DNA from: an uncultured Gammaproteobacteria bacterium
GTDB lineage: Bacteria; Patescibacteriota; Patescibacteriia; VMEV01; CAYQCH01
Assembly (NCBI GenBank): GCA_964503955.1
Contig: CAZDCG010000002.1
Span: forward strand, 205,047-269,046
DNA length: 64,000 nucleotides
Direction: 5' to 3'
The notes beneath the pieces were generated by a model. The model was given only the letters and a program-made list of their open reading frames with translations, did no database searches and was not told where the DNA came from. Shown here in pieces: positions 3,301-58,219 of this stretch. The position numbers and the translations under genes are program-made. Every line of letters starts with the position of its first letter. Within the stretch, counting starts at the first letter, position 1.

Positions 3301-5619
3301 TTATAATTCGATTCTATAGAGTTTATCAGCCGTAATCACGTAGGCGGCATTCTTCACCAGATCAACAGTCAGGTCCTCAAAAGGGGACGCGCCGTCGGAG
3401 ACATACTGCGCCATAAACGAGCCTGTTTTGTTAAAGACAAGCAGACGGTTTGGTTCAAGGATGTACAAGCGCTGCGTGTCTGCTGACGTAAACAGGCGCT
3501 GGGCATTTTCAAGCGGCGGATCAACCAGTGCCAGCTGAATACGCGGATTGGCGGCCCGCCCGCGCAGGAATTGCAGGACATTGTTTGGCGTAAGCACATA
3601 TACGCTGCCGTCAATGGCGATATCTCGCGCATTCGAAAGGTCGGCTTCTTCCGTCATCCAATTGCTGAACACAGAAAGGCTTGGAAGCTGATTCGAGCGC
3701 AGAATCTGGTTCAGTGAAGGCGCAACTGTGTATAAACGGTTATTGAAGAAAGCGGCTCCCACGAGATCAGCCTGGGTATTGGCTGTGGAGGTGATGGCTT
3801 CCTTGGCCGCGTAATCAACCTGGGTGACATTATTGCGCTGGATCAGCGCGTAGGTACCTTCAACAATGCGCACGGCGCTTGTCATGCCTTGCGCGTCTGA
3901 AGCAATATCGGTCTGCTGAGCAGAAAGGGTCTGAGGATTGATTCTGAGCGCGGACGTAGAAGACTGAGAGAGAATGGTCAGCGCGTCACCGTCAAGGAAA
4001 ATGGCTGCAGCGGGACCTTTGAGCTGCTCGGAAAGATTGTCGACAAGAAGAGATCCTTCTTGCAGGCGGATTTCCTTTCTCAACTTGCGCTGCTGCTCTT
4101 CAAGGCTTGCCATCAGCGTGGATCGTTCAGAGGCGAATTCCTCGATTTCAGGCAGGCTTGTCAAAGAGGCCAGGGTTGTCTGAAGCAATTCCGTGGCATC
4201 GGCTTCGCGGCCTACAATCAGATGGGCATCGATTCGGTTGATGCTATTCCGGATTTGAGCAAGGTTTACGGAGACCTGTTCTTTTTCTTCCTTGGTCTGC
4301 TTTACAGATGACCGCCAGATCGAAAGACCTGTAAATGAGCCCGCCAGCAGAATGATGACAAGGTAGGTAACAGGGGATTTAAGCAGGTTCGGAGTAATAA
4401 AACGTCGAATCGGTCGGATAATACGGTCAAAGATGGAGAGGAGCATCTTTTTCCATGTTGATGTGCGCGTCACAGCCTGGTTTGTGGAGAGCAGGTCCAT
4501 GGTGCTTGGGCGCTGAGATGATCCCGTCCCGCGCACAAGACGAAGAAGGATCAGGAAAGTGTGCTTGACCGCGGTCAGTACTTTCTTAGGCAACGATTGA
4601 TGTTCGTTCCACTTCTCTCCGGCATGTTTAGGTACCCGCTTATCTGGAAAGATATTTTTCAGTTTGTCAGCCGCGGGGCCAAGCAGCTGGGAGAAGTGAA
4701 AACCTGCGGAATTGCCAAGCAGCTTTTGCGTTTGCGCCTCCGTTGTATTGAGATTCTCCATTGATGTTTCGGCTCCAAGATCCAGGCGGCGTTGTACGTC
4801 CTCATTGCGGAGCGGGTAGGGGGAAAGGCGCAGGGAAATGCCTGCCACAAGGCGGTCCGGTCCCTGGAAATGGATCTGATTTTCAATATGCTTGCCGGCC
4901 GGAAGCACGGAAAGGGTAGAAAGAATTTGCTTGAGTTCTGTTAAGGAAATGTAATTGAGTAAATTAGGTGTACAGAAGAAAATCTGGTCGTTTTGCGGGA
5001 TAGAGCTGCTGATGATATTGCGGAAAAACTTCTGCGGAATGCCTTGGGTTTGCAGCTGGTCGGACGTATCAAAGATACTAATAAGTTTTTTGGTTTCAAG
5101 CTGGGCATTGTTGAGCAGCCAGCCTGTTACGTCGCCAAAGCGGCTGACATGAAATTGCATTCTGTTTGGAACCTGGTCAGGAGTCAGCATTCCGATAATC
5201 ATGGACCAGCTATGAACGGGCAGAGGGGCGGAAAAGTCTCGCAGAAAGGCGGTGATTTCCTGATTGATTTTTTGCAGGCATTGCTCAAAGAAATCGTCAG
5301 GAGCAACCGTAATGCGCTGGCCTTCAAAACGATCTTGTTGATACTTGATAATCTGCCTGCAGCGTTCGCCGACTTCGGCAATCACGGAAGGGTTGTCAGC
5401 CGGACCATTTTGAAAAATAAGCAATGAAAAAAATTTATACGGCTGGCCTGAAAAATGCAGGTCGAGCTGCCATGCGTCGCTGACCCCGTTTGTCCGGGGA
5501 TCCTTCTTGAAAAAATGTCCGAAGGGAAGCCGTAGATCGGTCATAGGACAGTGAGTGGGGGCGGTTTCCTTTACAGATGATAGTAGAGTCATTATACTTG
5601 ATTCTCGAGACGTGATCAA
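3301..5619 (-). CDS. Large hypothetical protein with one predicted transmembrane segment and a repeat-containing C-terminal region (possibly beta-propeller).
   Basis: A long ORF of 772 aa. A central hydrophobic helix (VTYLVIILLAGSFTGLSIW) is followed by repeated LY-x-V/I-x-P/A-x-x-L motifs. No family was recognised. Confidence 0.5.
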   Translation of the reverse strand: MITSRESSIMTLLSSVKETAPTHCPMTDLRLPFGHFFKKDPRTNGVSDAWQLDLHFSGQPYKFFSLLIFQNGPADNPSVIAEVGERCRQIIKYQQDRFEGQRITVAPDDFFEQCLQKINQEITAFLRDFSAPLPVHSWSMIIGMLTPDQVPNRMQFHVSRFGDVTGWLLNNAQLETKKLISIFDTSDQLQTQGIPQKFFRNIISSSIPQNDQIFFCTPNLLNYISLTELKQILSTLSVLPAGKHIENQIHFQGPDRLVAGISLRLSPYPLRNEDVQRRLDLGAETSMENLNTTEAQTQKLLGNSAGFHFSQLLGPAADKLKNIFPDKRVPKHAGEKWNEHQSLPKKVLTAVKHTFLILLRLVRGTGSSQRPSTMDLLSTNQAVTRTSTWKKMLLSIFDRIIRPIRRFITPNLLKSPVTYLVIILLAGSFTGLSIWRSSVKQTKEEKEQVSVNLAQIRNSINRIDAHLIVGREADATELLQTTLASLTSLPEIEEFASERSTLMASLEEQQRKLRKEIRLQEGSLLVDNLSEQLKGPAAAIFLDGDALTILSQSSTSALRINPQTLSAQQTDIASDAQGMTSAVRIVEGTYALIQRNNVTQVDYAAKEAITSTANTQADLVGAAFFNNRLYTVAPSLNQILRSNQLPSLSVFSNWMTEEADLSNARDIAIDGSVYVLTPNNVLQFLRGRAANPRIQLALVDPPLENAQRLFTSADTQRLYILEPNRLLVFNKTGSFMAQYVSDGASPFEDLTVDLVKNAAYVITADKLYRIEL

Positions 5620-10603: not shown

Positions 10604-11823
10604 CGCTTATGATTGCAAAACGACTTATAGCAAAACAGCAGCCGAAACTTGTTCTTGTTTGCGGGAGTCTTGGTAAAACCTTATTTGCCAAAATCTCCGA
10701 ACAGGTTCTCACAAAGCTTGATCTTTCCGTGGCCTATGCGGAAGTGCAGACCAATCTTCGGTCCGTTGTGGCAGATGTCCACGGAGGAAAATTGAGGGCG
10801 CTCTTCGCTTCCATGGGTTTTGGGCGTTCTTTTGATCTACATCTCTTTGAGTTTCACCCTGATTCTGAAGCACGCAGAGAGCTGCTCGACAGTTATGAGC
10901 GGCGTTATCTGGTCATACCATACATTACGAGGGATGATATTGCCGCGGCAGGCGGTTTGGATAAGTACTTGCAGAGAAATTGCTATTTGAACAAAAAGCG
11001 CGCTAAGGAAACAACGATCATCTTCAATGCGGATATTACCGGGTTAGAGGAGGCTTTGCGCGAAATGGGTGGAGAACGCCTGCATGGTTTCAGTCTTGGT
11101 GATCAGGACGCTGAGCTGACGGCGGTTTCGCCTGAATTCAAGCTTCCTGAAGACGCGGCGATCACCAACGATCATCGCATTCAGGGGATATTGTTCAAAG
11201 CAAAGAATGGCGGAAGCACATTGCCTATGCGCGTTCTGGGTGGGATCGGCGATGCCTATATCTGCGCGCATCTTGCTGTCCTTGAGCTGCTTCGTCTGCT
11301 TGAATTAAATCAGATTGACGGGCTTGCCATTCTCAAAGAAATGCGGGCACTGCCCGGCCGTGCCAAGCTTATTGCCGGCATCAAGAAAACGCTGCTGGTG
11401 GATGATTCCTATGATATGGAAGTGGAAAGCGCGCTTTCGATCTTTGCGGCAGGCGGCACCGTTCCTTTGCAGAAAGGGCATCGCCGCATTGCGGTGGTAG
11501 GCGATTTGCTGCATCAGGGAGAGCAAACAAGCGAGCAACATTTCAGCATTGGCGAACGGCTCGCAAAAGCAGGATATGACGCTGTTGTGGGCATTGGCGA
11601 ACGCGTGCTTGAAACATTGCAAAGCGCGATTGAAAATGGAATGAATGAACAGGCGGTTTTCCATTTCACCGATCCGCATGAAGCGGGGAAATTTATTCAG
11701 CATGAACTCAAACAGGGCGATCTGGTGGTGGTAAAAGGTGCCAAAGAGCAAAAGCTTGAGTCTATTGTCAAAGAGTTGATGGCCTTCCCTTTGCAGGCGA
11801 AAGATGATTTGCTCGTCAGATAA
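10600..11823 (+). CDS. Mur ligase family protein, possibly a reduced MurF/MurE-like enzyme.
   Basis: 407 aa, with an ATGA overlap onto the ftsI stop. The P-loop is VLVCGSLGKT and the Mur-ligase C-terminal motif is LLVDDSYDME. It is shorter than canonical Mur ligases. Confidence 0.5.
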   Translation: MTLMIAKRLIAKQQPKLVLVCGSLGKTLFAKISEQVLTKLDLSVAYAEVQTNLRSVVADVHGGKLRALFASMGFGRSFDLHLFEFHPDSEARRELLDSYERRYLVIPYITRDDIAAAGGLDKYLQRNCYLNKKRAKETTIIFNADITGLEEALREMGGERLHGFSLGDQDAELTAVSPEFKLPEDAAITNDHRIQGILFKAKNGGSTLPMRVLGGIGDAYICAHLAVLELLRLLELNQIDGLAILKEMRALPGRAKLIAGIKKTLLVDDSYDMEVESALSIFAAGGTVPLQKGHRRIAVVGDLLHQGEQTSEQHFSIGERLAKAGYDAVVGIGERVLETLQSAIENGMNEQAVFHFTDPHEAGKFIQHELKQGDLVVVKGAKEQKLESIVKELMAFPLQAKDDLLVR

Positions 11824-11911
11824 GTCTGATACAAACTTCTATAACGCTAAAGCCCCCTGCAAACCTCTCGGTCCGTAGGGGGCTTTCGCTTTGCAGCTCT
11901 CGGCTTGGGAG

Positions 11912-12271
11912 CTAGGCGGCCTGCTTGAGCAGGTCCTTGATGAAGGGCTTCCGCTTGATCTCGTTCTGGCGGGACCACTCGCGGCCGAGCCGGTTGAGGG
12001 CGCGGGCGCAGATCGCGTCGAGCTTGCGGAGGCGCTCGTCCGTGACCTCGTCGGTGCGCCACTTCTTCTTGCGGCAGAGCGCGCGCCACACGATGCCGAT
12101 GAAGTAGTCGGCGGGGTGGATGAAGGGCGACCGGTTGGCCCTGCCCCTGCGAAGGAGCTCCTTGAGCCCCCTCTGCGCGTCCGTCGAGCTCTTGTAGTAG
12201 ATGTCGTAGGTCTCGGGGAACCCCTCGTTGCTCAAGGTGAAGGTTCGAGGGGCGGGGGACGTCGTCATCAT
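11912..12271 (-). CDS. Hypothetical protein in a high-GC cassette with GC3 near 100%. Probably horizontally acquired.
   Basis: 119 aa. A strong SD (AGGAAGGTGA) sits 7 nt upstream of the ATG. Codon third positions are almost all G/C, unlike the neighbouring genes. No family recognised. Confidence 0.5.
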   Translation of the reverse strand: MMTTSPAPRTFTLSNEGFPETYDIYYKSSTDAQRGLKELLRRGRANRSPFIHPADYFIGIVWRALCRKKKWRTDEVTDERLRKLDAICARALNRLGREWSRQNEIKRKPFIKDLLKQAA

Positions 12272-12476
12272 GAAAGATCACCTTCCTTCCGCAAAGCGGA
12301 TTTATCAATATACTGAACGTTGAGAAAAGAGTCAACTGCACAGCTTTTTTGTCGTAAATTTTTGACAACAAAGCTCTGAAAAACAGGCATGGTTTTAGCT
12401 GTTTTGACAGAAATGCTCAAATAACTGGATTGCTACCTTTGCATGCTAAAATTGTCATAGCCCTAATCCAACTCCT

Positions 12477-13478
12477 ATGGCCAAACATGTTTCAATGGTT
12501 TTGACATTAATCCTGGCGGCTTGCCTGATACAACCGGTATCCGCGCAAAGCGAGCTGGTCCTTGATATCGTATTTCCGGTAGACGGTCCGCACAGTTTTC
12601 AAAATGACTTTGATCATCCCCGCGCGGGGCATACGCATGAAGCCACGGATATTCTGGCTGAAAAAATGACGAAGGTTCTCGCCGCGCAGGCAGGGTGCAT
12701 CAGCTATATGCCGATTCCCGAACCTTCATGGGGGTATGCCATCTATATCCGCGGCGTGGACGGCTACTCATATGCGTATTTGCATCTCAATAACGATACG
12801 CCTGGAACGGACGATGGGAGCGGAGGTCCTGAAAACGCGTATGCTCCCGGACTTTCTCGCGGGGACTGCGTGGAGAAGGGGCAGCATATCGGCTGGGTAG
12901 GAGACAGCGGCAATGCCGAAAGTATTGCGTCGCATTTGCATTTTGAAATCGAGGATGAAGAAGGCAACCGCGTCAATCCTTATTTCAGTCTGCTCAATGC
13001 CGTGGGCGCGGCAAGCTACAATCCAGAAGTGGAAAGGGAATTGAGCCAGACCATCAATATGGATTTGCAAATCACGCAAGCGCCGGGACTTACGCATTGC
13101 CAGTCAAATACGTTGATTAAATCGCTTTCCTCCGATTCGGTCTATTATTGCGGAGCGGATGGACGCCGCTATGTATTCCCCAACCAGGCGATCTATTTCA
13201 GCTGGTATAAAAACTTCGACGAGGTGATCACAATCAGCGATGAGCAGCTCGCGGCTATTCCGCTTGGTAAAAATGTGACGTATAAGCCCGGCGTGCGTCT
13301 GGTCAAAATCCAGACCGATCCGAAGGTGTACGCAGTCGGCCATGGGGGATTATTGCGCTGGGTAACTTCTCCGGAAACGGCAGAAAACCTGTATGGGGCA
13401 AATTGGGCAAAGCAGGTGGATGATATTCCCGAAGTATTTTTCCTGGACTACCAGATCGGTGATCCTGTGAATTTTTAG
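12477..13478 (+). CDS. Secreted M23/LytM-family metallopeptidase with an extra C-terminal domain.
   Basis: 333 aa. Signal peptide is MAKHVSMVLTLILAACLIQPVSAQS. The M23 motifs are HxxxD (HTHEATD) and GDSGNAESIASHLHFE. Confidence 0.75.
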   Translation: MAKHVSMVLTLILAACLIQPVSAQSELVLDIVFPVDGPHSFQNDFDHPRAGHTHEATDILAEKMTKVLAAQAGCISYMPIPEPSWGYAIYIRGVDGYSYAYLHLNNDTPGTDDGSGGPENAYAPGLSRGDCVEKGQHIGWVGDSGNAESIASHLHFEIEDEEGNRVNPYFSLLNAVGAASYNPEVERELSQTINMDLQITQAPGLTHCQSNTLIKSLSSDSVYYCGADGRRYVFPNQAIYFSWYKNFDEVITISDEQLAAIPLGKNVTYKPGVRLVKIQTDPKVYAVGHGGLLRWVTSPETAENLYGANWAKQVDDIPEVFFLDYQIGDPVNF

Positions 13479-13592
13479 GCAGGGCCTTAAAAACAAGAAC
13501 GCACCGCAGGGACCGCTTGCCCGCCTCTGGAGGGGGATACGGTCGCCTTGCGGTGCGTGTGGCGGGGGAAGCTGTGAGGCATCCCCGCGCTT

Positions 13593-14126
13593 CTAGTCGA
13601 GATGGCTCAGGCTTTGCCAGCCGGCAAAGGTCGATCTCATCTCGAACGGCTCAAACCAGCTCGGCTCATGACTCCATACCGGAACCATCTTCGAGCCGTA
13701 GTTGATGGCCTGGCCGGTGCCGAGTGTGAGCCGCGGGTGGATTCCGGAGATCTCCTCCTGAATGCTCTCGTAGGCATCCTGGCGAGACTCAAGCTCAGCC
13801 AGCTGCCGGCTGAAGAATTCGCCGGTGCCCTGCGGATCGCAGAAGAACTCCTCGATGAGGAATTCCCTCCACGCGTACTTCGCGAAGATGGCGGTCACAC
13901 CGGACGTGTACAGCTGATCCTCGACACCAAGTGCGTAGATCGCGCTTCGGTAGTCGTGGATCGTGCTTCCGCCTTGGCGGTGAGAACGAAGGATCAGGAT
14001 GCCTTCCTTGTAGTGGATGTCGAGTTCCTCGCTCCGGTGGAATTTCCGGCTCAGGAGCTCTTCGTCGAGAAGCACCTCGCACTTGATGGCGAGAATGTTC
14101 ATGTTCTTCTGCAAGATACCTCCCAT
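13593..14126 (-). CDS. Hypothetical protein in a second high-GC cassette.
   Basis: ORF of 177 aa; the likelier start is at 14102 (MNILAIKCEV...). GC3 is strongly elevated relative to the backbone. No family recognised. Confidence 0.45.
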   Translation of the reverse strand: MGGILQKNMNILAIKCEVLLDEELLSRKFHRSEELDIHYKEGILILRSHRQGGSTIHDYRSAIYALGVEDQLYTSGVTAIFAKYAWREFLIEEFFCDPQGTGEFFSRQLAELESRQDAYESIQEEISGIHPRLTLGTGQAINYGSKMVPVWSHEPSWFEPFEMRSTFAGWQSLSHLD

Positions 14127-14457
14127 TGCTTAAGAGGGATTCACCCACACCGCTCCTCTCAAGCTTGTTGAAAAGAATGGTGAGGGGGGAGGCAGCACCT
14201 CTGATAACCATGATTTTCCACTTCGGATAACCACGCTAATGTATCACGAAAACGAGCTTTTGTCAAGGAAAATGGCAATTTTTCTTGAAAAATAGTCAAG
14301 ATTGTGGTTTACTCTCTTTGCGTAGCACCCGCTGCGCTTTGTTTTATGAAGACCACCCCCTGGCCCCCTCCTTATCAAGGAGTGGGAAGTAAGACCGCCA
14401 GCATTTGTCTGAGAGTCTGGTAAATCTGAAAAGTCTGAAAGGTCTTCGCGACAGCGA

Positions 14458-14532
14458 GGCCCCATCGTCTAGCGGCTAGGACGCCAGGTTCTCATCCTGG
14501 AAACCGGGGTTCGATTCCCCGTGGGGTCACCA
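14458..14532 (+). tRNA. tRNA-Glu (anticodon CTC).
   Basis: Cloverleaf GGCCCCA/TGGGGTC acceptor, anticodon arm CCAGG-TTCTCAT-CCTGG, T-arm CGGGG-TTCGATT-CCCCG, CCA encoded. Confidence 0.85.
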
Positions 14533-14863: not shown

Positions 14864-15847
14864 ATGAAGAAGATTTTATATCAAACAAGTTTAGGAAAAT
14901 ACGTTTTGGGTGATTCCAAAGCTCTTATTGAGAAAGGTGAACTGGATCAATACAAAAATAAGATCCAGCTAGTTTTATTTTCTCCGCCATTTCCTTTGAA
15001 TGCCAAGAAGAAGTATGGGAATAAACTCGGAAAGGAATATAAAAAGTGGTTGTCTGATCTTGCACCTCTATTTGCGAAGTTATTGAAAAAGGACGGTTCT
15101 ATCGTTGTAGAGATGGGAAATGCATGGGAACCTAAGCGTCCAATACAGGCACTACTATCCCTTGAGTCATTGATGGCTTTCGTGAGTAATCCTAAAGCTG
15201 ACCTGCGTTTATGTCAGGAGTTCATTTGCTACAACCCCTCACGCCTCCCGTCGCCAGCTCAATGGGTTACAGTCAATCGGATACGCACGATCGATAGCTA
15301 CACACATGTATGGTGGATGGCAAAATCAGACTTTCCTAAGGCAGACAATCGTCGAGTTCTCAGACCGTACAGCAAGAGCATGCTCCAGCTTCTCAAGCGC
15401 AAGAGTTATAACTCCGGCAAGAGACCATCGCAACACAGCATCAGCGAGAAAGGTTTTCTTACGAATAACAAAGGGAGCATCATGCACAATGTCCTCGAGC
15501 TTGAACAGATGGACGAAGAGAGGGACTTGCGCCTCCCGACAAATATGTTTAGTTTTGCAAACACAAATTCCAATGATTTTTTCTCAACGCAATGCCGTAA
15601 GAAAAACATACCCATACACCCGGCACGAATGCCGACGTCACTTGCAAACTTTTTTATTGAATTTCTGACCGAACCCGGCGACATAGTCTTTGATCCATTT
15701 GCCGGGACAAATACCACCGGCTATTGTGCAGAAAAGTTAAAAAGAAAATGGCTGTCAGTGGAGATCGACAAAGATTATGGTAAGCAGTCGATCATCAGGT
15801 TCAAAGAACCAAAACTTACCAAGAAATTAACTATTAAGAAGATATGA
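14864..15847 (+). CDS. Type II DNA methyltransferase, beta class (N6-adenine or N4-cytosine).
   Basis: 327 aa. Motif IV SPPF (LVLFSPPFP) is near the N-terminus and motif I (FxGxG-like, IVFDPFAGTNTTG) near the C-terminus. This is the circularly permuted beta order, as in M.PvuII and M.RsrI. Confidence 0.8.
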   Translation: MKKILYQTSLGKYVLGDSKALIEKGELDQYKNKIQLVLFSPPFPLNAKKKYGNKLGKEYKKWLSDLAPLFAKLLKKDGSIVVEMGNAWEPKRPIQALLSLESLMAFVSNPKADLRLCQEFICYNPSRLPSPAQWVTVNRIRTIDSYTHVWWMAKSDFPKADNRRVLRPYSKSMLQLLKRKSYNSGKRPSQHSISEKGFLTNNKGSIMHNVLELEQMDEERDLRLPTNMFSFANTNSNDFFSTQCRKKNIPIHPARMPTSLANFFIEFLTEPGDIVFDPFAGTNTTGYCAEKLKRKWLSVEIDKDYGKQSIIRFKEPKLTKKLTIKKI

Positions 15848-17832
15848 GCACAAAATCAGTCATCAAGAATCTAGCTTCCGTTGACATCCTTACTGCGGCA
15901 AAAGACCCCGGTGCTCTTATTGGACGTCCTTTCTATTTGGACTACGAAAAAGCATGCGTCCTTGTACCGGACGCTTGGAAAATGAAAGTCGGTGGGATAC
16001 CGCAAGGTGCATTCCTACTTGCTTTTTATGAGAACGATGAGGGTATCTCTGAAGCTCTGCTTTTGCGAGCACTTGGACCCAAAGGTTTACCTACTGACAG
16101 CGACGTGACTAGTTCAATGATCGAATACTACAAAGACAATCTTAAAACAGCAGACGTTAAAGGTAGCCAGCTTGATGACTTTACTCGTTACCACTTCAGC
16201 TTCTCAGGATTGGAGTGTCGCATCCTTGGGACCTTCTACAAAGATAAGTCTGGGACTGTAGTTTTTGGTGCAGATCTCGAAAACTTCTATAGTGCTCATA
16301 ATTACACTGTCTACAAGCCGTCGGGCAAAGTTCTAGAACAAATTGTGAACTATAAGGACTTGAACGAAGTAGCAGGAGGTGTGAGTGATGTGAAGATCGG
16401 GAATGTTCGATACAGTTCAAGTTTACGTTTTCAGGACGATATCGAAAAGGTACCCGTTTACATCAGCCCTAAAGACTTTATCGGCAAGCGAACCGCTCTC
16501 TTCGGTATGACTCGTACAGGTAAGTCGAACACGGTAAAGAAAATCATTGAAGCAACGGTTGAAATCAGCCAAAAAGCAAAGAGGAAAAATGGCACAGATG
16601 CGAGCACCGAACCTTTTACGAAGTCTGGCTTGACCAAAGAATCAATAGGCCAAATCATCTTCGACATCAACGGAGAATATGCAAATGCAAACCTACAGGA
16701 CGATGGTACGGCGATCTTCGAGATGTATAAAGACGATGTTGTTCGTTACAGCTTACTAGAAAAGCCAGGATTCAAGGTCATGAAGACAAACTTTTTTGAC
16801 GACATTGATGCTGGCTTTGAGTTGCTGTGCTCGCTGTTAGCTATGGACGACGCACGTTTCGTTTCTAACTTTCGCTCCATCGAGCTGACCGTTCCACAAG
16901 AACTGGAAGACGATCCGAGCTTTAAGGTAAGGCATGCGCGACGAGTTGCGGCGTACAAGTGTTGTTTGCACCAAGCTGGCTTTAAGCATAAGGACACAAC
17001 TATCAAATTCTCCGGAGAAGCGACTCTCAATGCTTTAGCAAGTGGAATTGACCCATCAAAGGGAATCTCATACGATCAAGCTGTGAACTGGTTCACAGCA
17101 GTGTGGGAGGCCACCGGAGAGAATGACTTTTTCGAGAATTATAAAAAGAAACATGAGGGTCGAGAATGGGCCGATGAAGACCTTAAAGCCCTGCTCGTGA
17201 TGCTCACACGCAAGCGTAGTCCCGGCTCTGGTAAAGGCGCAGACTGTAGCGGATTTAGGGTGTTTAAGCCTGCACTGAATTTGCATACAGAAAGTGTCGA
17301 CAAGCCCTACGCAATTGAAATTCTAGAGACCTTGAGGCAAGGTAAAATTGTGATCGCTGATCTATCGCAGGGTAATCCAGAAATAATTCAGCTCTACTCG
17401 GAGAAAATCTGCCAGAGAATATTTGCTGATGCGATGAATAATTTCATTGCAGCAAAAAGCAATAATTTTATTCAGATGTACTTCGAAGAAGCTCACAATC
17501 TTTTCCCAAAGCAGACAGATAAAGATCTCAGTAAAATATATAACCGCTTGGCAAAAGAGGGGGCAAAACTTCATCTCGGTATCGTCTACGCTACACAAGA
17601 AGTTAGTTCTATCAGCTCCAACATCCTCAAAAACACCCAGAATTGGTTTATTGCTCACCTTAACAACGAGGATGAGTTAAAGGAACTCAAAAAGTATTAC
17701 GACTTTACTGACTTCACTACCGGGCTTACCCGATTCAGCCCCAACACAGACAAGGGTTTTGTTCGTATGAAAACATACTCTAATCCGTTTGTAGTACCTG
17801 TTCAGATCGACCGATTTACAGCGAAGAAATAG
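15844..17832 (+). CDS. HerA/FtsK-superfamily ATPase (DUF87-like) with an N-terminal HAS-barrel-like region and a large insertion.
   Basis: 662 aa, with an ATGA overlap onto the methyltransferase stop. Walker A is ALFGMTRTGKSNTVKKII. The HerA-type IFDINGEY motif follows. Walker B is FIQMYFEEAHNLFP. The HerA C-terminal signature is LGIVYATQEVSSISSNILKNTQNWFIAHLNNEDE (compare TQRPs...lsQcnT...RL.N..D). Confidence 0.65.
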   Translation: MSTKSVIKNLASVDILTAAKDPGALIGRPFYLDYEKACVLVPDAWKMKVGGIPQGAFLLAFYENDEGISEALLLRALGPKGLPTDSDVTSSMIEYYKDNLKTADVKGSQLDDFTRYHFSFSGLECRILGTFYKDKSGTVVFGADLENFYSAHNYTVYKPSGKVLEQIVNYKDLNEVAGGVSDVKIGNVRYSSSLRFQDDIEKVPVYISPKDFIGKRTALFGMTRTGKSNTVKKIIEATVEISQKAKRKNGTDASTEPFTKSGLTKESIGQIIFDINGEYANANLQDDGTAIFEMYKDDVVRYSLLEKPGFKVMKTNFFDDIDAGFELLCSLLAMDDARFVSNFRSIELTVPQELEDDPSFKVRHARRVAAYKCCLHQAGFKHKDTTIKFSGEATLNALASGIDPSKGISYDQAVNWFTAVWEATGENDFFENYKKKHEGREWADEDLKALLVMLTRKRSPGSGKGADCSGFRVFKPALNLHTESVDKPYAIEILETLRQGKIVIADLSQGNPEIIQLYSEKICQRIFADAMNNFIAAKSNNFIQMYFEEAHNLFPKQTDKDLSKIYNRLAKEGAKLHLGIVYATQEVSSISSNILKNTQNWFIAHLNNEDELKELKKYYDFTDFTTGLTRFSPNTDKGFVRMKTYSNPFVVPVQIDRFTAKK

Positions 17833-19232: not shown

Positions 19233-19278
19233 TTTTGACTGAGTTATGTATAGATAACCACAAATTACTGAGTCAAAA
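19233..19278. repeat. Imperfect 12-bp inverted repeat (TTTTGACTGAGT ... ACTGAGTCAAAA) in the convergent gap between the nuclease gene and the recombinase 3' end. It is either a bidirectional terminator or a recombinase site.
   Basis: One mismatch between arms and a 22-bp spacer. It overlaps the recombinase stop codon. Confidence 0.35.
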
Positions 19279-20599
19279 CCTTCCCATTCTTCAAAACTAA
19301 CTCACTACTCACGCACTCCAATACCGATCTTTGCTCTAAAACACTTCCGTCTCGCAGCACAAACTTGGCGTAGTCTTTGAGATCTATCGGTTCAATCTTT
19401 TCGGTCTTTTTCTTGCCCAAGAACATCGCTTGGAGCTTTTTAAACTTTTGAATCTCGCTGTCTAGTTTGGCGGTCAATTTCACCCTATCAAGGCTGATGG
19501 TGTCGACCATCTTTAACAATGCTTCAACTAGTTCTGTTTCGTTGAGAGCTGAATTTTTGCAATGCCTATCTTTGGATTTGGTACATCTGTAGTAGACATG
19601 GCGATTCACTCCTCCTGCTTTTATCTTCTTAAACTTCTCATCCGCTGTAATGCCAGATCCACATTCACCACACGTCATAAGACGTGTAAATGCAAATTCT
19701 TTCCCCTGTGATTTAATCACCTGTGATTTTATTGATTTGCGTGTTTCATCGAACAATTCTTTGGTTATTATTGGCTTGTGTTTCCCGTCATACCAAGCTC
19801 CACTTCCTTGAGGGAATTCAAACCGACCGTAATAAAACGTATTATCAATAATCTTAAAAACATTACCTAGGCTCAAATGAAAACCTCGATGTGTTTTAAA
19901 ATCAAGCTCGTATTTAAGCCATTTATGAACTCGTGAGACACTCCATTTTTCATAAGCGATTTTTTCAAATATCTGTCGTATTATCTCCGCTCGTTCAGGA
20001 TCCAGTTCAACTTCACATTTGGCGGTTCTATCATTCACTTTTCTGTAGCCTGTTGGTGGCTGAGCCGGCCATAACCCCATTTCACAGCGTGTTCTCATAC
20101 CTCGTTTAACATTGATACTCTTGTTATCATTTTCAAGCTTTGCTTGGCTACAAAGAATCATCAGCAAGAATTTATCACTTGGCGAATTGGTGAATGTCTG
20201 GCCAAATGTTTTTATCTGAATCAATTTTTTTTGATCCATTCGATCGACCAGTTTCCCCAGATCGCCAGCGTTTCGGCTTAAACGATCTGGAGCCCAGGTG
20301 ATAACTCCATCAAAAATTCCTGAATCAATATCTTTTACCAGTTCTTCAAAAACAGGTCTTGTCCCAGATTCTTTAGCCGAGTGGGATTCTCTACGAATTT
20401 CAGACACCAAAAGATTTTCTCGTTCCGCAATTTGCGTCATCTCCTTGATTTGAGAATCAATGGATAATGCCTGCTTTTCATCGCCCTCGGTGGATTTACG
20501 AGCGTATAAACAATATTTTAGGTTGGGTTGAGCTTCTGTCATGTATTTATTAATGACAGATACCAATACATCTGCTAAGTCTATGCAGAATAGCCCCAT
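19265..20599 (-). mobile_element. Large serine recombinase (phage/ICE-type integrase).
   Basis: The N-terminal resolvase catalytic domain has YARKSTEGDEKQALSIDSQ (serine nucleophile region) and DRLSRN. The C-terminal recombinase domain has the zinc ribbon CGECGSG...YYRC. The likely true start is at 20542 (MTEAQPNLKYCLYARKS). Confidence 0.8.
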
Positions 20600-23327: not shown

Positions 23328-24218
23328 ATGACCTGGGAAGATACTTTTAAATCTTGGGGGGCTGCTCCAAGTACAACGGAGCAACAAAAGATGGAAAATG
23401 CGGAGACGGCCATAAGAAAAGCCATTGAAGCAAATTCTCAATTGTCGTGCATGGATATATCATTCATACCTCAAGGTTCTTATAAATCAAAAACGAATGT
23501 AAGGAACGATAGTGATGTTGATATTTGTGTTTGTTTAAATTCGACTTTTTTTCCCAGATATCCTATTGGTAAGACAAAGGAACATTACGGGAATATAGGT
23601 GGAACTATTACTTTTTCAGCTTTCAAGAACTTGGTTCAAAGAGCGCTCGAAGATTATTTTGGCAAGGAAAGTGTCGATCGCGGTAATAAAGCTTTTGATA
23701 TCCACTCAAACACGTACAGAGTCGATGCCGATGTCGTTCCTGCTTTTGCGTATAGGTATTATTACGATACAGGTTTCAAATGGCACGATCCTGAGGGTAT
23801 TTGCTTCTTAGCTGATGACGGCACAAAGATTATAAACTGGCCACACCAAGTCTACGAAAACTGCAAAAACAAACACACTGTAACAGGACAAAGATATCGC
23901 AAAGTAACAAGAATTTTAAAAAGACTAAGAAACAGGATGCAAGAGGAAGATATTATTGAAGCAAGAGATATTCCCTCATTTTTGATCCAAAGCATGGTGT
24001 GGGGAGCACCTGATGATCATTTCAATAGGGACACCTACTCTGCGGATGTTCGCGCTGTGCTTGCGCATTGTCATAACGAGACATTGCCAAACGGAAATCA
24101 CGCTGATCTGCGAGAAGTCAACAATATTAAACTAATTTACGGAACTCACCAGCCCTGTACAAGAGAAAGGGCTCACGCTTTTTTTGCTAAGTCATGGGAC
24201 TATATTGGATTTAAATAA
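23328..24218 (+). CDS. SMODS-domain nucleotidyltransferase (cGAS/DncV-like, CD-NTase-type), the CBASS-like cyclase.
   Basis: 296 aa. It has the GS...DxD motif (QGSYKSKTNVRNDSDVDICVCL) and a third acidic residue in YRVDADVVPAF. The N-terminal pattern is typical of SMODS. Confidence 0.6.
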   Translation: MTWEDTFKSWGAAPSTTEQQKMENAETAIRKAIEANSQLSCMDISFIPQGSYKSKTNVRNDSDVDICVCLNSTFFPRYPIGKTKEHYGNIGGTITFSAFKNLVQRALEDYFGKESVDRGNKAFDIHSNTYRVDADVVPAFAYRYYYDTGFKWHDPEGICFLADDGTKIINWPHQVYENCKNKHTVTGQRYRKVTRILKRLRNRMQEEDIIEARDIPSFLIQSMVWGAPDDHFNRDTYSADVRAVLAHCHNETLPNGNHADLREVNNIKLIYGTHQPCTRERAHAFFAKSWDYIGFK

Positions 24219-24222
24219 ACAC

Positions 24223-24846
24223 ATGGATAAGGTAAATGCCACGGTTAGGGTATATGTTCAAATTCTCGCTTTTCTTGTCATTTGGAGCATTACCATTCTC
24301 GTTACTAAAACGTATTCTGTTTTTGATTTTTGGACGGCAGTTAAATTAATCCCACAAGCAATTTCAGCCTACGCACTCTTAGGAATTATCTTTGTAAAAT
24401 GGCTCTGGCGTTTGAAGTTTTTACAAGGTTGGTTGATAAAAATACCAGATCTTCAAGGAACCTGGCGAGGCGAACTTAAAAGTGACTGGATAAACCCTGA
24501 AACTGGTAAGGGTATTGATCCAATACCTGTGCTTTTAGTTATCCGACAAACCTTTTCGAGTATTCAATGCACCATGATGACACGAGAATCCTCAAGTTAC
24601 AGTACCACCGCAAATATCAACGCCGCTCCTAATAGCGAAGACCTCTATTTAACATATAATTATACTAATAGACCTAAAGCGACGATCAGAGATAGAAGTG
24701 CAATTCATGATGGGGCCTCTATACTAAAGATTATCTCAAAACCAAATAGATTTCTTGAAGGAGAATATTGGACAAGTCGTAAAACCCGCGGGGAGATAGC
24801 ACTTGTTTTTGATTCAAAGGATCTTAAGGAAAAAATTGAGTTTTGA
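24223..24846 (+). CDS. Two-TM membrane effector with a beta-rich C-terminal domain (S-2TMbeta-like), the CBASS-like effector.
   Basis: 208 aa, starting 5 bp after the SMODS gene. Two TM helices (VRVYVQILAFLVIWSITILV and AISAYALLGIIFVKWLW) are followed by a beta-strand-rich region. Confidence 0.5.
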   Translation: MDKVNATVRVYVQILAFLVIWSITILVTKTYSVFDFWTAVKLIPQAISAYALLGIIFVKWLWRLKFLQGWLIKIPDLQGTWRGELKSDWINPETGKGIDPIPVLLVIRQTFSSIQCTMMTRESSSYSTTANINAAPNSEDLYLTYNYTNRPKATIRDRSAIHDGASILKIISKPNRFLEGEYWTSRKTRGEIALVFDSKDLKEKIEF

Positions 24847-34219: not shown

Positions 34220-34996
34220 ATGCGGCCGATGTGGACGGGAGCACTCAGCTTTGGACTGATCAATATCCCGGTGAAGTTGTACAGCGCAGCCAGGGAACAA
34301 TCCATAAAGCTGCGAATGCTTGAAAAAGGGACGCTCTGTCCTATCGGGTATGTGCGCGTATGCAAAGAAACAGGCAAAGAGGTTCCTTATGAAAAGATCG
34401 TCAAAGGATATGAATTTGAAAAAGGCGATTTCGTTGTTTTGGAGGATGAAGATTTCGAGCGGGCGAACGTAGAAAAGACCAAAACCATTGATATTGTCGA
34501 ATTCGTGGATGAAAAGGAGATTGGCACTGAATACTACGACAAACCTTATTATCTGGAACCGGAGAAACGAGCTCAGAAGGCCTATGCCTTGCTTTGCGAA
34601 TCGCTAAAGCGGTCAAAAAAGGTCGGCATCGCAAGAATGGTCCTTCGCACCAAGGAGCATATTGCGGAGCTGAAGCCGCATGGCAATATGCTGATGCTGC
34701 ATCAGTTGCGATTTCAGAACGAGATCAGGCCTGCTGAGGATTTGTCTATCCCCGAAAATCAAACGTATTCGAAAGCGGAGATCAATATGGCGTTGATGCT
34801 TATTGAACAGCTTACGTCGCATTTCAAGCCGGGTGACTTCAGTGACACATATACACAAGAGCTTTTCCGCGTGATCGGCGAAAAGAAAAAAGGGAAGAAA
34901 CCGAAAAAGAAAGGAAAAGAGCCCGAATATACGCGAATGCAGGATATCATGGAGGCGCTGAAGAAAAGCCTTGAGAAAGAGCGGATCCGCGGATGA
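34220..34996 (+). CDS. ku: Ku protein (non-homologous end joining).
   Basis: 258 aa. MWTGALSFGLINIPVKLYSA is the hallmark Ku N-terminus. The basic, lysine-rich C-terminal tail is present. Confidence 0.85.
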   Translation: MRPMWTGALSFGLINIPVKLYSAAREQSIKLRMLEKGTLCPIGYVRVCKETGKEVPYEKIVKGYEFEKGDFVVLEDEDFERANVEKTKTIDIVEFVDEKEIGTEYYDKPYYLEPEKRAQKAYALLCESLKRSKKVGIARMVLRTKEHIAELKPHGNMLMLHQLRFQNEIRPAEDLSIPENQTYSKAEINMALMLIEQLTSHFKPGDFSDTYTQELFRVIGEKKKGKKPKKKGKEPEYTRMQDIMEALKKSLEKERIRG

Positions 34997-37401
34997 ATGC
35001 TATGCCCCTCAAGCAGTATCAAAGCAAACGGCGCTTTTCAGAAACTCCTGAACCGCGAGGCAAAAGTACCCCAAAGAAAAAAGGGAAACGGTTCTGCGTG
35101 CAGAAACATGCCGCGTCTCACGTGCATTTCGATTTCCGCGTTGAAATAAACGGAGTGCTCAAAAGCTGGGCTGTCCCAAAAGGCCCATCGATGAATCCCT
35201 CTGACAAACGCATGGCGCTGCTTGTCGAAGACCATCCGCTTGATTATCTTTCCTTTGAAGGTTATATCCCGCAAGGGAATTACGGAGCCGGCAAGGTGAT
35301 TGTCTGGGATATTGGAACGTTTCAGCCGCTAACGGGGAAATCTCCAGCAATGCAGTTCAAGCAGGGAGTGATGCACTTCGTACTTGAGGGGAAGAAATTG
35401 CGAGGGGAATTTACCTTGATTAAAACAGGAAAAGAGAAGCAATGGCTCCTGATCAAAAAAAGTGATCAGTACATTTCAAAGCAAAATTTCCGTTTGAATA
35501 TCGATTCAGCTCTTTCGCATTCGACCCTGCTTGATAAGCGAGAATCGCACCCGGAGCATAAAAAGAAGATGCCGGCATTCTTTTCACCCATGCTTGCCAC
35601 CCTCGTGGACGAAGCGTTTGATGACAAAGGATGGGACTTTGAACTTAAATGGGACGGATATAGAGCTTTGGCATTTATCGACAAAAAAACACATCTTTTT
35701 TCCAGGCGGGGAATCCTTTATGATCGCAAATATCCTGAAATTCTTGAAGCTGTTTCATTCATCTCCGAGCGAGCTATCCTAGACGGAGAAATTATTGCTC
35801 TTGATGAGAAAGGAAAACCGAGTTTTCAGCTGCTGCAAAATCCGGAAAAACCTAAAGCGCTGCAATATATTGTTTTCGATCTTTTATTTTTGCACGGCAA
35901 GGATTTGCGAACCTATCCGTACCGGGAACGGAGAAACCTCCTTGAATCCATCCTCCCTAAGCATGACCCAAGGCTTGTATTGAGTCCGGTTGTAGAAAGA
36001 GCCGGCAAGAAGCTGCTAAAAGAATCCATCAAACGGGGATTTGAAGGGGTGATCGGCAAAAAGAACGATTCCATCTATGTCCCGGGGAAACGTTCCGCTG
36101 AATGGGTAAAGGTGAAAACCACGCATCGCCAGGAAGCGGTTATCGGTGGTTTTACGCGGCCCAAAGGATCTCGAAAGGGATTTGGATCCTTGCTTCTGGG
36201 CATCTACAAAAAGCATAGGTTAATCTATGCAGGAAATTGCGGAACCGGGTTTGATGACCGGCTCATTCAGGATCTCCATCGCCATCTTGAAAAGGTGGTT
36301 ATTTCTCAATCACCGTTTGCGGATTATCAGCACGATAAAAACGCGGTCTGGGTAAAACCAAAGCTGCTTTGCGAGGTGAAATTCACTGAATGGACCAAGG
36401 AAGGGAAAATGCGCCATCCGGTCTTTATTGGATTAAGGCAGGATAAACCAGCAAAGGAGGTTAACAGGGAACAGCCAAAGCAGAGAAATACCAAAAGAAC
36501 ATTTAATTTTCTTACCCATCAGGACAAAGTCTTTTGGCCGGAGGAAGGCTATACCAAAGGCGATTTGCTGGCGTACTATCAGGCGGTCCACTCGTTCATT
36601 TTGCCGTATCTGAGGGACAGGCCATTATCCATGCTTCGCCACCCAAACGGTATAAAGGGCAAGAGCTTCTTTCAAAAGAATGTTGAATATGACGTGCCGG
36701 ATTTCATGGAGACAAGAAAGATCCGTTCTGAACATGAAGGCAGGGCTATACGTTATCTCATCGCCAATAATCTCGAAGCACTTTTGTATGTGGTAAATCT
36801 AGGCTGTATCGAGTTAAATCCCTGGAATTCAAGGATTGAGTCTCTTGATCATCCAGATTATCTGATCATTGATATTGATCCTTCAACGAATGGATTCAAG
36901 GATGTTGTGCAGGTAGCAAAAACCGCTAGAAAGGTTCTTGATGAAGCCTGTGTCGAATCCTACTGCAAAACATCCGGAAAGCGGGGATTGCATGTGCTTG
37001 TGCCCATGCCCATGGGAGCAGCTTATACGTACGAGCAGACCAGGGTTTTTGCTGAATTGCTGGCGAATGTTATTCATGCTGAGCTGCCGGGTCTCACCAG
37101 CGTCGAGCGTTCACCAGCCAAACGAAAAGGAAAAATCTATCTGGATTTTCTTCAGAATCGCAAAGCGCAGACGCTGGCATCGCCGTATTGCGCGCGTCCG
37201 TGGCCCGGAGCGACTGTTTCCGCCCCATTGGAGTGGAAGGAAGTAAATAGCCGGCTGAACCCCGCGAAGTTTACCATCAAAACCATGCCTGACCGGCTGA
37301 AAAGAAGAGGGGACCTCTGGGAGGGAATGCTGGAACAGAAAACGGATTTAGATTATGCCGTAAGCTGCTTAGAACGATATCTGAAGAAGAGAAGATCATA
37401 A
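34993..37401 (+). CDS. ligD: Multidomain ATP-dependent DNA ligase LigD (phosphoesterase, ligase and polymerase/primase domains).
   Basis: 802 aa, with an ATGA overlap onto the ku stop. The phosphoesterase domain has FCVQKHAASHVHFDFRVE. The ligase domain has the KxDG motif (ELKWDGYRA). The C-terminal LigD polymerase domain is present. Confidence 0.85.
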   Translation: MNAMPLKQYQSKRRFSETPEPRGKSTPKKKGKRFCVQKHAASHVHFDFRVEINGVLKSWAVPKGPSMNPSDKRMALLVEDHPLDYLSFEGYIPQGNYGAGKVIVWDIGTFQPLTGKSPAMQFKQGVMHFVLEGKKLRGEFTLIKTGKEKQWLLIKKSDQYISKQNFRLNIDSALSHSTLLDKRESHPEHKKKMPAFFSPMLATLVDEAFDDKGWDFELKWDGYRALAFIDKKTHLFSRRGILYDRKYPEILEAVSFISERAILDGEIIALDEKGKPSFQLLQNPEKPKALQYIVFDLLFLHGKDLRTYPYRERRNLLESILPKHDPRLVLSPVVERAGKKLLKESIKRGFEGVIGKKNDSIYVPGKRSAEWVKVKTTHRQEAVIGGFTRPKGSRKGFGSLLLGIYKKHRLIYAGNCGTGFDDRLIQDLHRHLEKVVISQSPFADYQHDKNAVWVKPKLLCEVKFTEWTKEGKMRHPVFIGLRQDKPAKEVNREQPKQRNTKRTFNFLTHQDKVFWPEEGYTKGDLLAYYQAVHSFILPYLRDRPLSMLRHPNGIKGKSFFQKNVEYDVPDFMETRKIRSEHEGRAIRYLIANNLEALLYVVNLGCIELNPWNSRIESLDHPDYLIIDIDPSTNGFKDVVQVAKTARKVLDEACVESYCKTSGKRGLHVLVPMPMGAAYTYEQTRVFAELLANVIHAELPGLTSVERSPAKRKGKIYLDFLQNRKAQTLASPYCARPWPGATVSAPLEWKEVNSRLNPAKFTIKTMPDRLKRRGDLWEGMLEQKTDLDYAVSCLERYLKKRRS

Positions 37402-52375: not shown

Positions 52376-53794
52376 CTAGAGAGATTGCTGGTGTTCATCC
52401 GCCATCTCAGATGCTTCTTCATCTGTGATCGGCGAGGATACCGTGATCATATCTCCCGTCTGGTGAAGGATGAGGAGCTGATCTGAAATTGTCTGGATGC
52501 GGTCCCATTTGTACCCGAGCGAATTGAAGGTATACTCTGAATCAATCGGATGTTTTTTCCCATTTGAAATCACGTACACGGTCGGATCGGACGGACTTTT
52601 GACCAGGTAACCGTCTTTAAGCATGACAGGCGCCCCTTTTGTATAGCGGGACAATTCCTCTACAGTACCTTTGCGCACACGCAAATTCGGAAAATTGAGC
52701 GTAAGCAGTTCTGGGGCTACAAGAGGGGATTTCACGCCGTTTTTAACGAAATAGATGCCGTAGGTTTCCGGGTCCTGAATCAGGCTGCCTAGCGGTTCAA
52801 GCGACGCGCTGGTAATGGGAGCGCCTTCTTTGAAGAAATCAAGTTCAGCCGGGGTGACATCAACGACTTCATCTTCTGTATAACCGAGCTGGCGGAAGAC
52901 AAAGTCATCCGCAATCAGGCGGCGCTCATTATCAACCAGCAAATAGACCTGCCCATTGGCGAGACGCAGAATGCTTTGTTCAGGGTACGCAATAGGAGAG
53001 CCTGTCGGATACTGTTCAAGAGCCTGCAGCGGAACCTGAATAATGTTTTCTTTATTATAACGTGTTGTTAGGGCCGACAGGCTGGTGAACGGATGCCGCA
53101 CGCCATTGCGGAGCAGCCAGACGCCTGGTTCGCCGTATGCCTGAAGCAATGAACCGTCCGGGTAGGAGAGGAGGGTTCCAAACCAGCTGTCCCAGAGGCG
53201 CGCAAAAAGTTTATTCCCTTGAATATGCGGCGTGTAATTGTACAATGCTGCGGTTGATGAATTTTTAATAAAGACTTCCTGTCCGTTGATCGTGTAGGTT
53301 GCTCCTGGTTTGTAATAGAATTGATCAATATTTTCAACAAAATACCGTGTTCTTGCCGCCGCATGGTCAAGCTGTTTTGAAAAGCCTTTGAATTTCATGA
53401 CAATCGGGTGTTCAGGCGAGCAGGAATCGCAAAGCGCATATCCCGTGGCCCAGCTTATTTGCGTATCATACGGCTCAGGATCGGTAATCAGGCCCTGTTC
53501 TTTTTGCAGAAGAACGAGGAGATAGCGCGGGTTGACCCTGTTTCGAAGCGCCGCGTCATGGATAATCATGGCCGCGGTTTTGAGGTGGCCGTCGATATCG
53601 ATATCAAAATAATTTTTGAGAACACCCGAGTGCTCATCAAGGAAATCCTGTATTTCCTCAACATTCATGGAGCCGTAGGCAAAGAGGTCTGCATCCTGGA
53701 TGATGAGGCCCGGATCGTATGTGAATGCGCGGGCAGGGGAAGCGAACGGAAAAACCAAAGAAATCACCAGAAAATAAAGGGGAATTTTTTTCAT
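52376..53794 (-). CDS. Secreted protein with four tandem repeats of about 60 aa, possibly cell-wall associated.
   Basis: Signal peptide MKKIPLYFLVISLVFPFASPARA. Repeat motifs are VWLLRNGVRHPF, VYLLVDNERRLI, IYFVKNGVKSPL and VYVISNGKKHPI. Confidence 0.5.
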   Translation of the reverse strand: MKKIPLYFLVISLVFPFASPARAFTYDPGLIIQDADLFAYGSMNVEEIQDFLDEHSGVLKNYFDIDIDGHLKTAAMIIHDAALRNRVNPRYLLVLLQKEQGLITDPEPYDTQISWATGYALCDSCSPEHPIVMKFKGFSKQLDHAAARTRYFVENIDQFYYKPGATYTINGQEVFIKNSSTAALYNYTPHIQGNKLFARLWDSWFGTLLSYPDGSLLQAYGEPGVWLLRNGVRHPFTSLSALTTRYNKENIIQVPLQALEQYPTGSPIAYPEQSILRLANGQVYLLVDNERRLIADDFVFRQLGYTEDEVVDVTPAELDFFKEGAPITSASLEPLGSLIQDPETYGIYFVKNGVKSPLVAPELLTLNFPNLRVRKGTVEELSRYTKGAPVMLKDGYLVKSPSDPTVYVISNGKKHPIDSEYTFNSLGYKWDRIQTISDQLLILHQTGDMITVSSPITDEEASEMADEHQQSL

Positions 53795-57558: not shown

Positions 57559-57568
57559 GCTTGCCTGT

Positions 57569-58219
57569 ATGCAAAAAAAAGAGCAATATAGGCCCACGAG
57601 AGAAAGGTGGGTATCTGCACTCATGAAGCTCTTTTTGGCAAGCTTTGCTGGTTTAGCTCTGCTTGCGGGATCAGGGTGCGCGTCTTCCTCCTTGAGAGAA
57701 CCGCCTGCGCAGGCGGCCAAGACGCATACCGGCTTGAACCGACCGCTTCAGCCGCCGCCTCTTGCGGGGGATCTGGGCGAAGCCGGCGAGGATTACCGAA
57801 AACAGGTCAGGCACCGCATGTCGCAGCGGACAACCGAGATCCGTCAGCTGCAGATAAAAGCGGAACTGGCTCAGTCCCGTATTCACAGGGCTGTTCTGTC
57901 TGGAGCTGTGGAAGGCGTGGAAGAGGACCTCGTCCAGTTTATCCGACTGCGCGACGAAATCCTTCTGCTGCGAAGAGCCGCTGAGCAGGAATTCCTCCTG
58001 CTTTCGGCATTTCTCAGCGACGCGTCTGTTCTCCTGAGCAGGCAGAAGGAACAAGGCCCGATCGCTCTTGCGTATCGGGATCTCTCGCGGGAATACCGTG
58101 CAGAGGCGCTGCAAACACGCCAGCTTGTTGAAAGCGCCGAGCGGCAGCGAGAAGAAGCTGTCGACTTGCAGGACCGCGTGCTCAATGCGGCCCGGCAAGA
58201 AAGGAGCCCTACGGATTAA
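57569..58219 (+). CDS. Lipoprotein with a coiled-coil region.
   Basis: Lipobox LLAGSGCASS. The likely start is at 57623 (MKLFLASFAG...). Confidence 0.45.
   Translation: MQKKEQYRPTRERWVSALMKLFLASFAGLALLAGSGCASSSLREPPAQAAKTHTGLNRPLQPPPLAGDLGEAGEDYRKQVRHRMSQRTTEIRQLQIKAELAQSRIHRAVLSGAVEGVEEDLVQFIRLRDEILLLRRAAEQEFLLLSAFLSDASVLLSRQKEQGPIALAYRDLSREYRAEALQTRQLVESAERQREEAVDLQDRVLNAARQERSPTD

Follow-up and report, generated by a model that had tools for sequence, protein, structure and literature searches.

Orphan genes in bacteria are usually richer in AT than the genome that carries them, as described in PMC3514957. Foreign genes are in turn expected to age in a particular order, and in the Lawrence-Ochman model of amelioration, the equations of which are quoted in PMC7042692, it is the GC content of third codon positions (GC3) that is lowered first. 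Here we analyse two small orphan open reading frames, ORF1 and ORF2, each forming a compact cassette on the minus strand of a 64,000-nt stretch of contig CAZDCG010000002.1 (the window, below) and separated from one another by the gene for an M23 peptidase. The pattern that they put on record, with GC3 near 100% and a host-like GC content at first codon positions (GC1), is the opposite of that usual in AT-rich bacterial orphans. It seems probable that ORF1 and ORF2 are two unrelated and real protein-coding genes, acquired separately and recently from outside, and weakly constrained. A first-pass annotation had proposed either recent horizontal acquisition or a chimeric assembly; of these, acquisition is the best reading of the composition, the orphan status, the weak constraint and the break in synteny next to a tRNA gene and mobile island.

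Results

Composition and coding frames

The GC content of the window is 47.7%. As a background for GC3 we took 44 non-overlapping backbone genes within it, which have a mean of 0.513 (sd 0.048, maximum 0.59). ORF1 (11912-12271, minus strand, 119 aa) has GC1/GC2/GC3 of 0.53/0.47/0.97 and the open frame of ORF2 (13593-14126, minus strand, 177 aa) 0.57/0.38/0.79, corresponding to GC3 z-scores of 9.6 and 5.8. Both lie beyond the maximum of the background set and are atypical of the resident genome, in line with the first-pass annotation, which had judged their GC3, close to 100% and about 75%, to be foreign to it. The overall GC content of about 65% that had been given for both segments was right for 11880-12290 (64.7%) but too high for 13510-14200, where we measure 59.0%. 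The M23 gene between them (12477-13478, plus strand; Pfam PF01551) is native, encodes a signal peptide and has an ordinary composition (GC 0.51, GC3 0.57), as had been claimed.

When followed in phase-resolved 90-nt windows, third-position GC is 1.00 along most of ORF1 and the high-GC signal fades out in the 20-30 nt preceding the start codon; the intergenic region between ORF1 and M23 (12272-12476) has 38% GC. Plus-strand ORFs of 141 and 189 aa run across the cassettes, with their high GC falling at position 1. Antisense frames free of stops are to be expected in genes rich in GC3, so it is the minus-strand frames that are coding. The highly expressed native genes for L10, L7/L12, DnaK and ClpB have a GC3 of only 0.48-0.55, and hence codons ending in G or C are not selected for in the host.

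Each cassette carries the predicted elements of a self-contained minus-strand single-gene unit, namely a promoter in AT-rich DNA of host type, a Shine-Dalgarno site, strict three-base periodicity and a GC-rich hairpin terminator. ORF1 runs from an ATG at 12271 to a stop codon at 11912, and the strong Shine-Dalgarno site noted in the first-pass annotation of this 119-aa gene is seen as AGGAAGGTGA (12278-12287, minus strand), 6 nt before the ATG. A sigma-70-like promoter, TTGACT-17-TATATT (12307-12335, minus strand), which was assigned by consensus match only (10/12), lies in AT-rich, host-like DNA. The murF-like gene (stop codon at 11823) and ORF1 are arranged tail to tail, and between their stop codons is an imperfect hairpin with 23-nt arms (11843-11892, unstranded). 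This inverted repeat has terminator-like sites, folds as RNA into a hairpin of 10+6 bp and is probably a two-way terminator common to murF and ORF1. The ORF1 protein is basic, with an isoelectric point (pI) of 10.2 and 26 Lys+Arg in its 119 residues. In its AlphaFold2 model a beta-hairpin is followed by four helices (predicted local distance difference test score, pLDDT, 61.7; predicted template modelling score 0.54).

ORF2 (13593-14114, minus strand) encodes an acidic protein of 169-173 aa (pI 5.0). The annotated length of about 170 aa and the plausible start hold up, though the exact start is ambiguous: it could be the TTG at 14114 (173 aa) or the ATG at 14102 (169 aa), both of which were chosen by gene callers. 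GGGAGG at 14119-14124 is 4 nt before the TTG and 16 nt before the ATG, and the open frame reaches a further ATG at 14126 (177 aa) that has no Shine-Dalgarno site. The sigma-70-like promoter, TTGACA-17-TACATT with an extended TG (14238-14266, minus strand), matches the consensus at 10/12 positions. Between it and the start are two directly repeated copies of TGGTTATC[C/A]GA[A/G]GTG, 23 nt apart (14196-14233, minus strand), which look like a putative operator or regulator binding site in the ORF2 leader. On the 3' side of ORF2 the stretch 13479-13592 is 67% GC and non-periodic, and it can be taken as non-coding because indels between strains fall at 13495 and 13582. It contains an inverted repeat, a GC-rich hairpin with 13-nt arms followed by TCTTGTTTTT on the minus strand (13499-13558); hairpin and T-run together are probably the ORF2 terminator.

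Homology searches

Neither protein has a recognised family, as the first-pass annotation had stated. Nothing was found for ORF1 or ORF2 in Pfam, NCBIfam or PADLOC at E <= 1, including their models of known anti-phage defence and toxin-antitoxin proteins, or in PHROGs, where the best match had an E value of 0.056. A word-indexed search of 5.8 billion clusters returned only cluster mates that are 98-99% identical, and a HMMER search with ORF2 against all 1.84 billion representative proteins returned only ORF2 itself. No relatives of either protein were found by tblastn in 50,697 phage and 72,556 plasmid records, and pattern scans of IMG/VR and JGI metagenomes gave no match for ORF1, ORF2 or a 375-aa gene of the related genome L015 (see below). 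The ORF1 model found no Foldseek match in the PDB (best E 1.3) or BFVD (best E 0.57). PHROGs, the phage tblastn search, the BFVD search with ORF1 and IMG/VR thus gave no sign that either is a phage protein. Within the window there are no paralogues of the cassette genes, and high-GC3 genes from the window and from its relatives showed no homology to one another. Apart from the cluster mates, the databases searched hold no donor lineage and no homologue elsewhere.

A few weak matches were considered and rejected. A single match of ORF2 to a Streptomyces plasmid (E = 0.8) and a PDB sequence match of ORF2 to ScoE (E = 0.4) were treated as noise. The match of ORF1 to the N-terminal domain of the HERV-K capsid (PDB, E = 0.23-0.7) was not colinear and is not recovered by Foldseek, while a tblastn match within the window (E = 0.004) was dismissed as an antisense frame of native genes.

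Our guess at function, and a doubtful one, is that ORF1 encodes a small basic protein of the cytoplasm, mainly helical in structure and probably able to bind nucleic acid, and that the acidic ORF2 protein is of the alpha/beta type. With a defence island next to them, a part in conflict between genomes would be plausible for both.

Variation between strains

Two strain variants carry the cassettes in place. L001 (SRR11843836) is 97.8% identical to the window across 11707-12627 and L019 (SRR11843834) is 98.9% identical across 12534-14314; both have single-nucleotide polymorphisms (SNPs) of their own in the native flanks. A slightly different ORF1 protein was also found in an unrelated run, SRR5690606. 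ORF1 and ORF2 are present in every conspecific variant found, which shows the cassettes to be older than the split of the sampled strains and present in their common ancestor.

Between the window and L019 the M23 gene has 10 synonymous and no nonsynonymous changes (nonsynonymous divergence, dN, 0; synonymous divergence, dS, 0.050) and is under strong purifying selection. ORF2 has 2 synonymous and 3 nonsynonymous changes in the same comparison (dN 0.0076, dS 0.018), and ORF1 has 2 nonsynonymous and no synonymous changes between the window and L001 (dN 0.0073, dS 0). When the cassettes are pooled, their 5 nonsynonymous and 2 synonymous changes differ from the 0 and 10 of M23 (Fisher p = 0.0034). 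Selection on the cassettes is weak or diversifying, which is what recent accessory genes should show.

The main rival explanation is that the foreign DNA is inert. The ORFs would then have no function in the host and would be neutral passengers, open only because sequence rich in GC3 has few stop codons. Five nonsynonymous changes against none in M23 would suit this explanation, as would the failure to find any family, fold or homologue and the pLDDT of 41 for the ORF2 model, and the long antisense ORFs over both cassettes illustrate how easily such sequence stays open. However, both ORFs are intact and neither changes in length among its three sequence variants, with indels between strains confined to the DNA outside the coding regions. 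A promoter-like site, a Shine-Dalgarno site and a terminator also accompany each ORF, and the dN/dS of ORF2, at 0.41, is below 1. It would seem unlikely, on balance, that the cassettes are inert.

The most variable stretch between strains is 12340-12461, in the ORF1-M23 intergenic region, which holds 11 of the 20 L001 differences, including replacement of a 5-nt block at 12417-12421; ORF1 holds only 2.

Genomic context

In the relatives L014, L015/L016, L017 and L018 and in one JGI contig, the genes for L10, L7/L12 and a 760-aa protein are followed by two small genes and then by the block from mraZ to murF, in the order mraZ, rsmH, ftsL-like, ftsI, murF. Beyond murF the genes are different in every one of these relatives. 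Since the order is kept up to murF and diverges right after it, the cassettes lie at a synteny break. The site also has the features of a variable region or integration hotspot: a tRNA-Glu(CTC) gene (14458-14532, plus strand) marks the boundary with a low-GC mobile defence island to the right, which carries a serine recombinase. The contigs of L014, L017 and L018 all have their 3' ends 1.1-1.4 kb downstream of murF, which suggests strain-variable or repeated sequence at that junction.

The lineage is poorly sampled, with the closest MurF homologues only 48% identical. ORF1 and ORF2 are absent from L014, L015, L017 and L018, but MurF identity in these genomes is only 34-48%. No intermediate relatives were found in the databases, and a scan of genome contigs with the M23 protein found only a non-syntenic relative, L007. 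No convincing flanking repeats, att sites or mobility genes were found at the cassette borders; the nearby recombinase is limited to the low-GC island (19265-20599).

Codon usage and the donor

The first-pass annotation had likened the codon usage of the cassettes to that of Actinobacteria. To place them we used the equilibrium lines GC1 = 0.615·GC + 26.9, GC2 = 0.270·GC + 26.7 and GC3 = 1.692·GC - 32.3 of Lawrence and Ochman, as quoted from PMC7042692. On these lines the GC3 of ORF1 implies a donor of 76.7% GC, for which GC1 should be 74%; the observed GC1 of 53% is 5.2 standard errors (SE) low. The GC1 of ORF2 is 2.7 SE below expectation, while the native M23 and MurF genes fall on the line. 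Because amelioration in a host of 48% GC would, in this model, lower GC3 first, the deviation is the reverse of what an ageing import from a bacterium should show.

In its codons ORF1 prefers CTC over CTG (8:1) and CCC over CCG (5:0) and uses AGG three times. C at third positions (0.59) exceeds G (0.38), and the Lys, Glu and Gln codons all end in G. The usual actinobacterial preference is for CTG and CCG, unlike the CTC and CCC of ORF1, whose C-ending bias may resemble that of some GC3-rich eukaryotes and of Thermus-type bacteria. With no homologue in any organism searched, and so none in Actinobacteria, with a host-like GC1 off the line quoted above for high-GC bacteria, and with CTC and CCC preferred, the Actinobacteria-like label is unsupported. 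ORF2 differs from ORF1 in its codon use (CCG 5:0, AGC-rich, GC3 0.79) and the two genes therefore probably have different histories.

Other high-GC3 orphans are found in the relatives. L015, with 38.6% GC, has a gene of 375 aa (15908-17035, minus strand) with a GC3 of 0.86 against a genome median of 0.24, and this gene too prefers CTC over CTG (20:8) and CCC over CCG (8:1) and has a GC1 that is 6.1 SE low on the lines used here. In L014 a 117-aa gene directly after murF has a GC3 of 0.66 (genome median 0.37) and in L017 a 96-aa gene has 0.71 (median 0.33). In all, 4 of 5 related genomes, in about 120 kb examined, carry unrelated orphans whose GC3 is 0.66-0.97. The C-ending signature (CTC >> CTG, CCC >> CCG) is common to several such orphans, which lie 5-6 SE off the bacterial GC1/GC3 line as quoted, on the side away from that to which amelioration would lead. 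It is conceivable, though rather unlikely, that the lineage habitually takes up genes from one source with GC pressure on its codons, for instance a GC3-rich eukaryotic host or its viruses. If there were one such common source, the orphans would be a molecular trace of a partner organism of this uncultivated bacterium, and if the recurrence holds genome-wide it could reveal the organisms or viruses that exchange DNA with the lineage.

The 375-aa gene of L015 lies in a 58% GC patch (15776-17200 of CAYGRO010000007.1, assembly GCA_964352335.1) in which the existing gene call is a 474-aa ORF in the antisense frame. The gene consistent with GC3 is the 375-aa orphan, for which there is only a weak hint of TPR. 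Gene callers can thus choose the antisense frame of GC3-rich genes of this kind.

The recurrence of high-GC3 genes in distant relatives bears on another explanation, in which the cassette genes are native and their third positions shifted to G/C in situ, through codon selection or local GC-biased gene conversion. It would account for GC1 and GC2 that are host-like with GC3 alone extreme, judged on the lines used here, and for a high-GC signal that stops at the ORF1 start codon. Selection for G/C-ending codons is not seen, however, in L10, L7/L12, DnaK or ClpB, the cassette genes have no orthologues in the relatives, and the high-GC3 genes of the different genomes are mutually unrelated. The non-coding 3' stretch of ORF2 is likewise 67% GC. 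We regard an origin of the cassettes within the host as very improbable.

Assembly

The possibility that the assembler had joined reads from a high-GC organism into a chimeric contig, for which only the compositional discontinuity speaks, was examined in per-run Logan contigs retrieved by exact-protein look-up. The contigs of SRR11843815, 16, 17, 27, 30, 34 and 35 match the window at 100% identity over ORF1, M23, ORF2 and the flanking DNA, and one per-run contig covers 2477-15222. A chimera would need four false junctions, each repeated at 100% identity in the independent assemblies of eight sequencing runs and found again in two diverged strain variants that have their own flank SNPs. Chimeric assembly, the second proposal of the first-pass annotation, is excluded.

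The least credible explanation, that the cassettes are GC-rich structured non-coding RNAs with spurious ORFs, may draw on GC-rich patches often being RNA genes in AT-leaning genomes and on a fold z-score of -3.45 for the whole ORF1 transcript, but that score is due to the terminator hairpin (the ORF1 coding region has z = -1.31 against shuffled sequence), Rfam gave only the tRNA at both gathering and E <= 1 thresholds, and the strict three-base periodicity is a coding signature.

Other features of the window

A third high-GC patch (0.58-0.60) at 56761-58219 contains two neighbouring orphan ORFs, of 265 and 216 aa, that resemble lipoproteins. Both have a lipobox signal peptide, the first has a Pro-rich tail and neither has a Pfam match. 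Their codon-position GC is on the bacterial line quoted above and fits a donor of 55-61% GC, so that this patch looks like a more ordinary import than ORF1.

The low-GC (~0.40) integrated element to the right of tRNA-Glu(CTC) extends from 14567 to about 25300. It encodes an XRE regulator, two N6/N4 DNA methyltransferases, a HerA-like ATPase, a 449-aa zinc-ribbon protein, a large serine recombinase (19265-20599, minus strand), a TerS-like helix-turn-helix protein and a LexA-like S24 repressor, together with a CBASS (cyclic-oligonucleotide-based anti-phage signalling system) pair of a SMODS nucleotidyltransferase (23328-24218) and Cap15 (24184-24846). Further along, Ku (34220-34996; Pfam E = 1.5e-51) is followed by a full-length LigD (34993-37401) with phosphoesterase, ligase and primase-polymerase domains, and the two make up a complete bacterial non-homologous end-joining pair.

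At 255-1949 there is an OLD-family protein, with an AAA_15 ATPase and an OLD-like TOPRIM domain, which is a candidate defence nuclease. A 772-aa protein without a Pfam domain (3301-5619, minus strand) lies between L7/L12 and the mraZ cluster, a position that is conserved in every relative examined. A secreted protein of 472 aa (52376-53794, minus strand) carries repeats similar to the C-terminal domain of the M23 protein, and 61002-62333 (plus strand) encodes another M23 peptidase. Judging from such genes, the lineage seems to have many secreted proteins that act on the cell wall.

Discussion

The contig is sound over a striking compositional break, and the earlier guess at the donor can be corrected. 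We think that ORF1 and ORF2 were inserted in the variable DNA that extends from the end of the L10-L12...mraZ-rsmH-ftsL-ftsI-murF block to tRNA-Glu. The composition of the coding regions, set against the lines of PMC7042692 as quoted, would point to a donor with GC pressure on its codons and not on its whole genome, and not to the chromosome of a typical actinobacterium. The cassettes probably went in by illegitimate insertion. There are no repeats, att sites or recombinase at the borders, and Ku with LigD could join foreign fragments; this pair would offer a homology-independent route for their capture at breaks.

Several observations weigh against recent acquisition from outside. With no donor or homologue, the case for transfer is made from composition and distribution only. 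The nearest relatives are so distant that absence from a sister species is not demonstrable and the acquisition cannot be dated. Both the GC1 far under the bacterial equilibrium line, as that line is quoted, and the abrupt 5' boundary at the ORF1 start codon are unlike a simple block transfer from a high-GC bacterium. The structure model of ORF2, moreover, is unusable.

Among known systems, integron gene cassettes are similar in being compact, with little beyond one ORF, and in that the foreign composition begins at the ORF. They differ in that a native gene lies between ORF1 and ORF2, each of which has a promoter to itself. The 3' hairpins, inspected by eye for an attC-type site, lack the RYYYAAC/GTTRRRY (R''/R') cores, and no integron integrase or tyrosine recombinase was found among the ORFs scanned, which were part of those in the window. 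The eukaryote-like or host-derived genes of intracellular and epibiotic bacteria share the C-ending codons (CTC, CCC) and moderate GC1 and GC2, a combination that may be nearer to GC3-rich eukaryotes than to high-GC bacteria, but no eukaryotic or viral homologue was found for ORF1 or ORF2, and both have bacterial expression signals.

As in the Lawrence-Ochman model (PMC7042692), in the form quoted here, codon-position GC marks the genes as foreign, with the GC3 of the cassettes far more than 8 points above the genome. Unlike in the model, the deviation of ORF1 runs in the opposite direction, its GC1 being 53% against 74% predicted.

The closest likeness is to the ORFan genes of tRNA-proximal genomic islets, which like ORF1 and ORF2 are small and of atypical composition, lack homologues, have their own promoters and are weakly constrained. 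The site is also alike, a synteny break by a tRNA gene and an integrated mobile element. Unlike such islets, the cassettes have no mobility gene or repeat at their borders, and in contrast to the orphans described in PMC3514957 they are far GC-richer than their genome. Nor, on the lines quoted, is their composition drifting from that of a high-GC donor towards that of the host, as GC3 is decoupled from GC1. As small acquired orphans at a variable site, the cassettes are a routine kind of finding. What is unusual, on the same lines, is that the anomaly goes towards a GC content above that of the host, that it takes the form of a GC3 uncoupled from GC1, and that it recurs in relatives.

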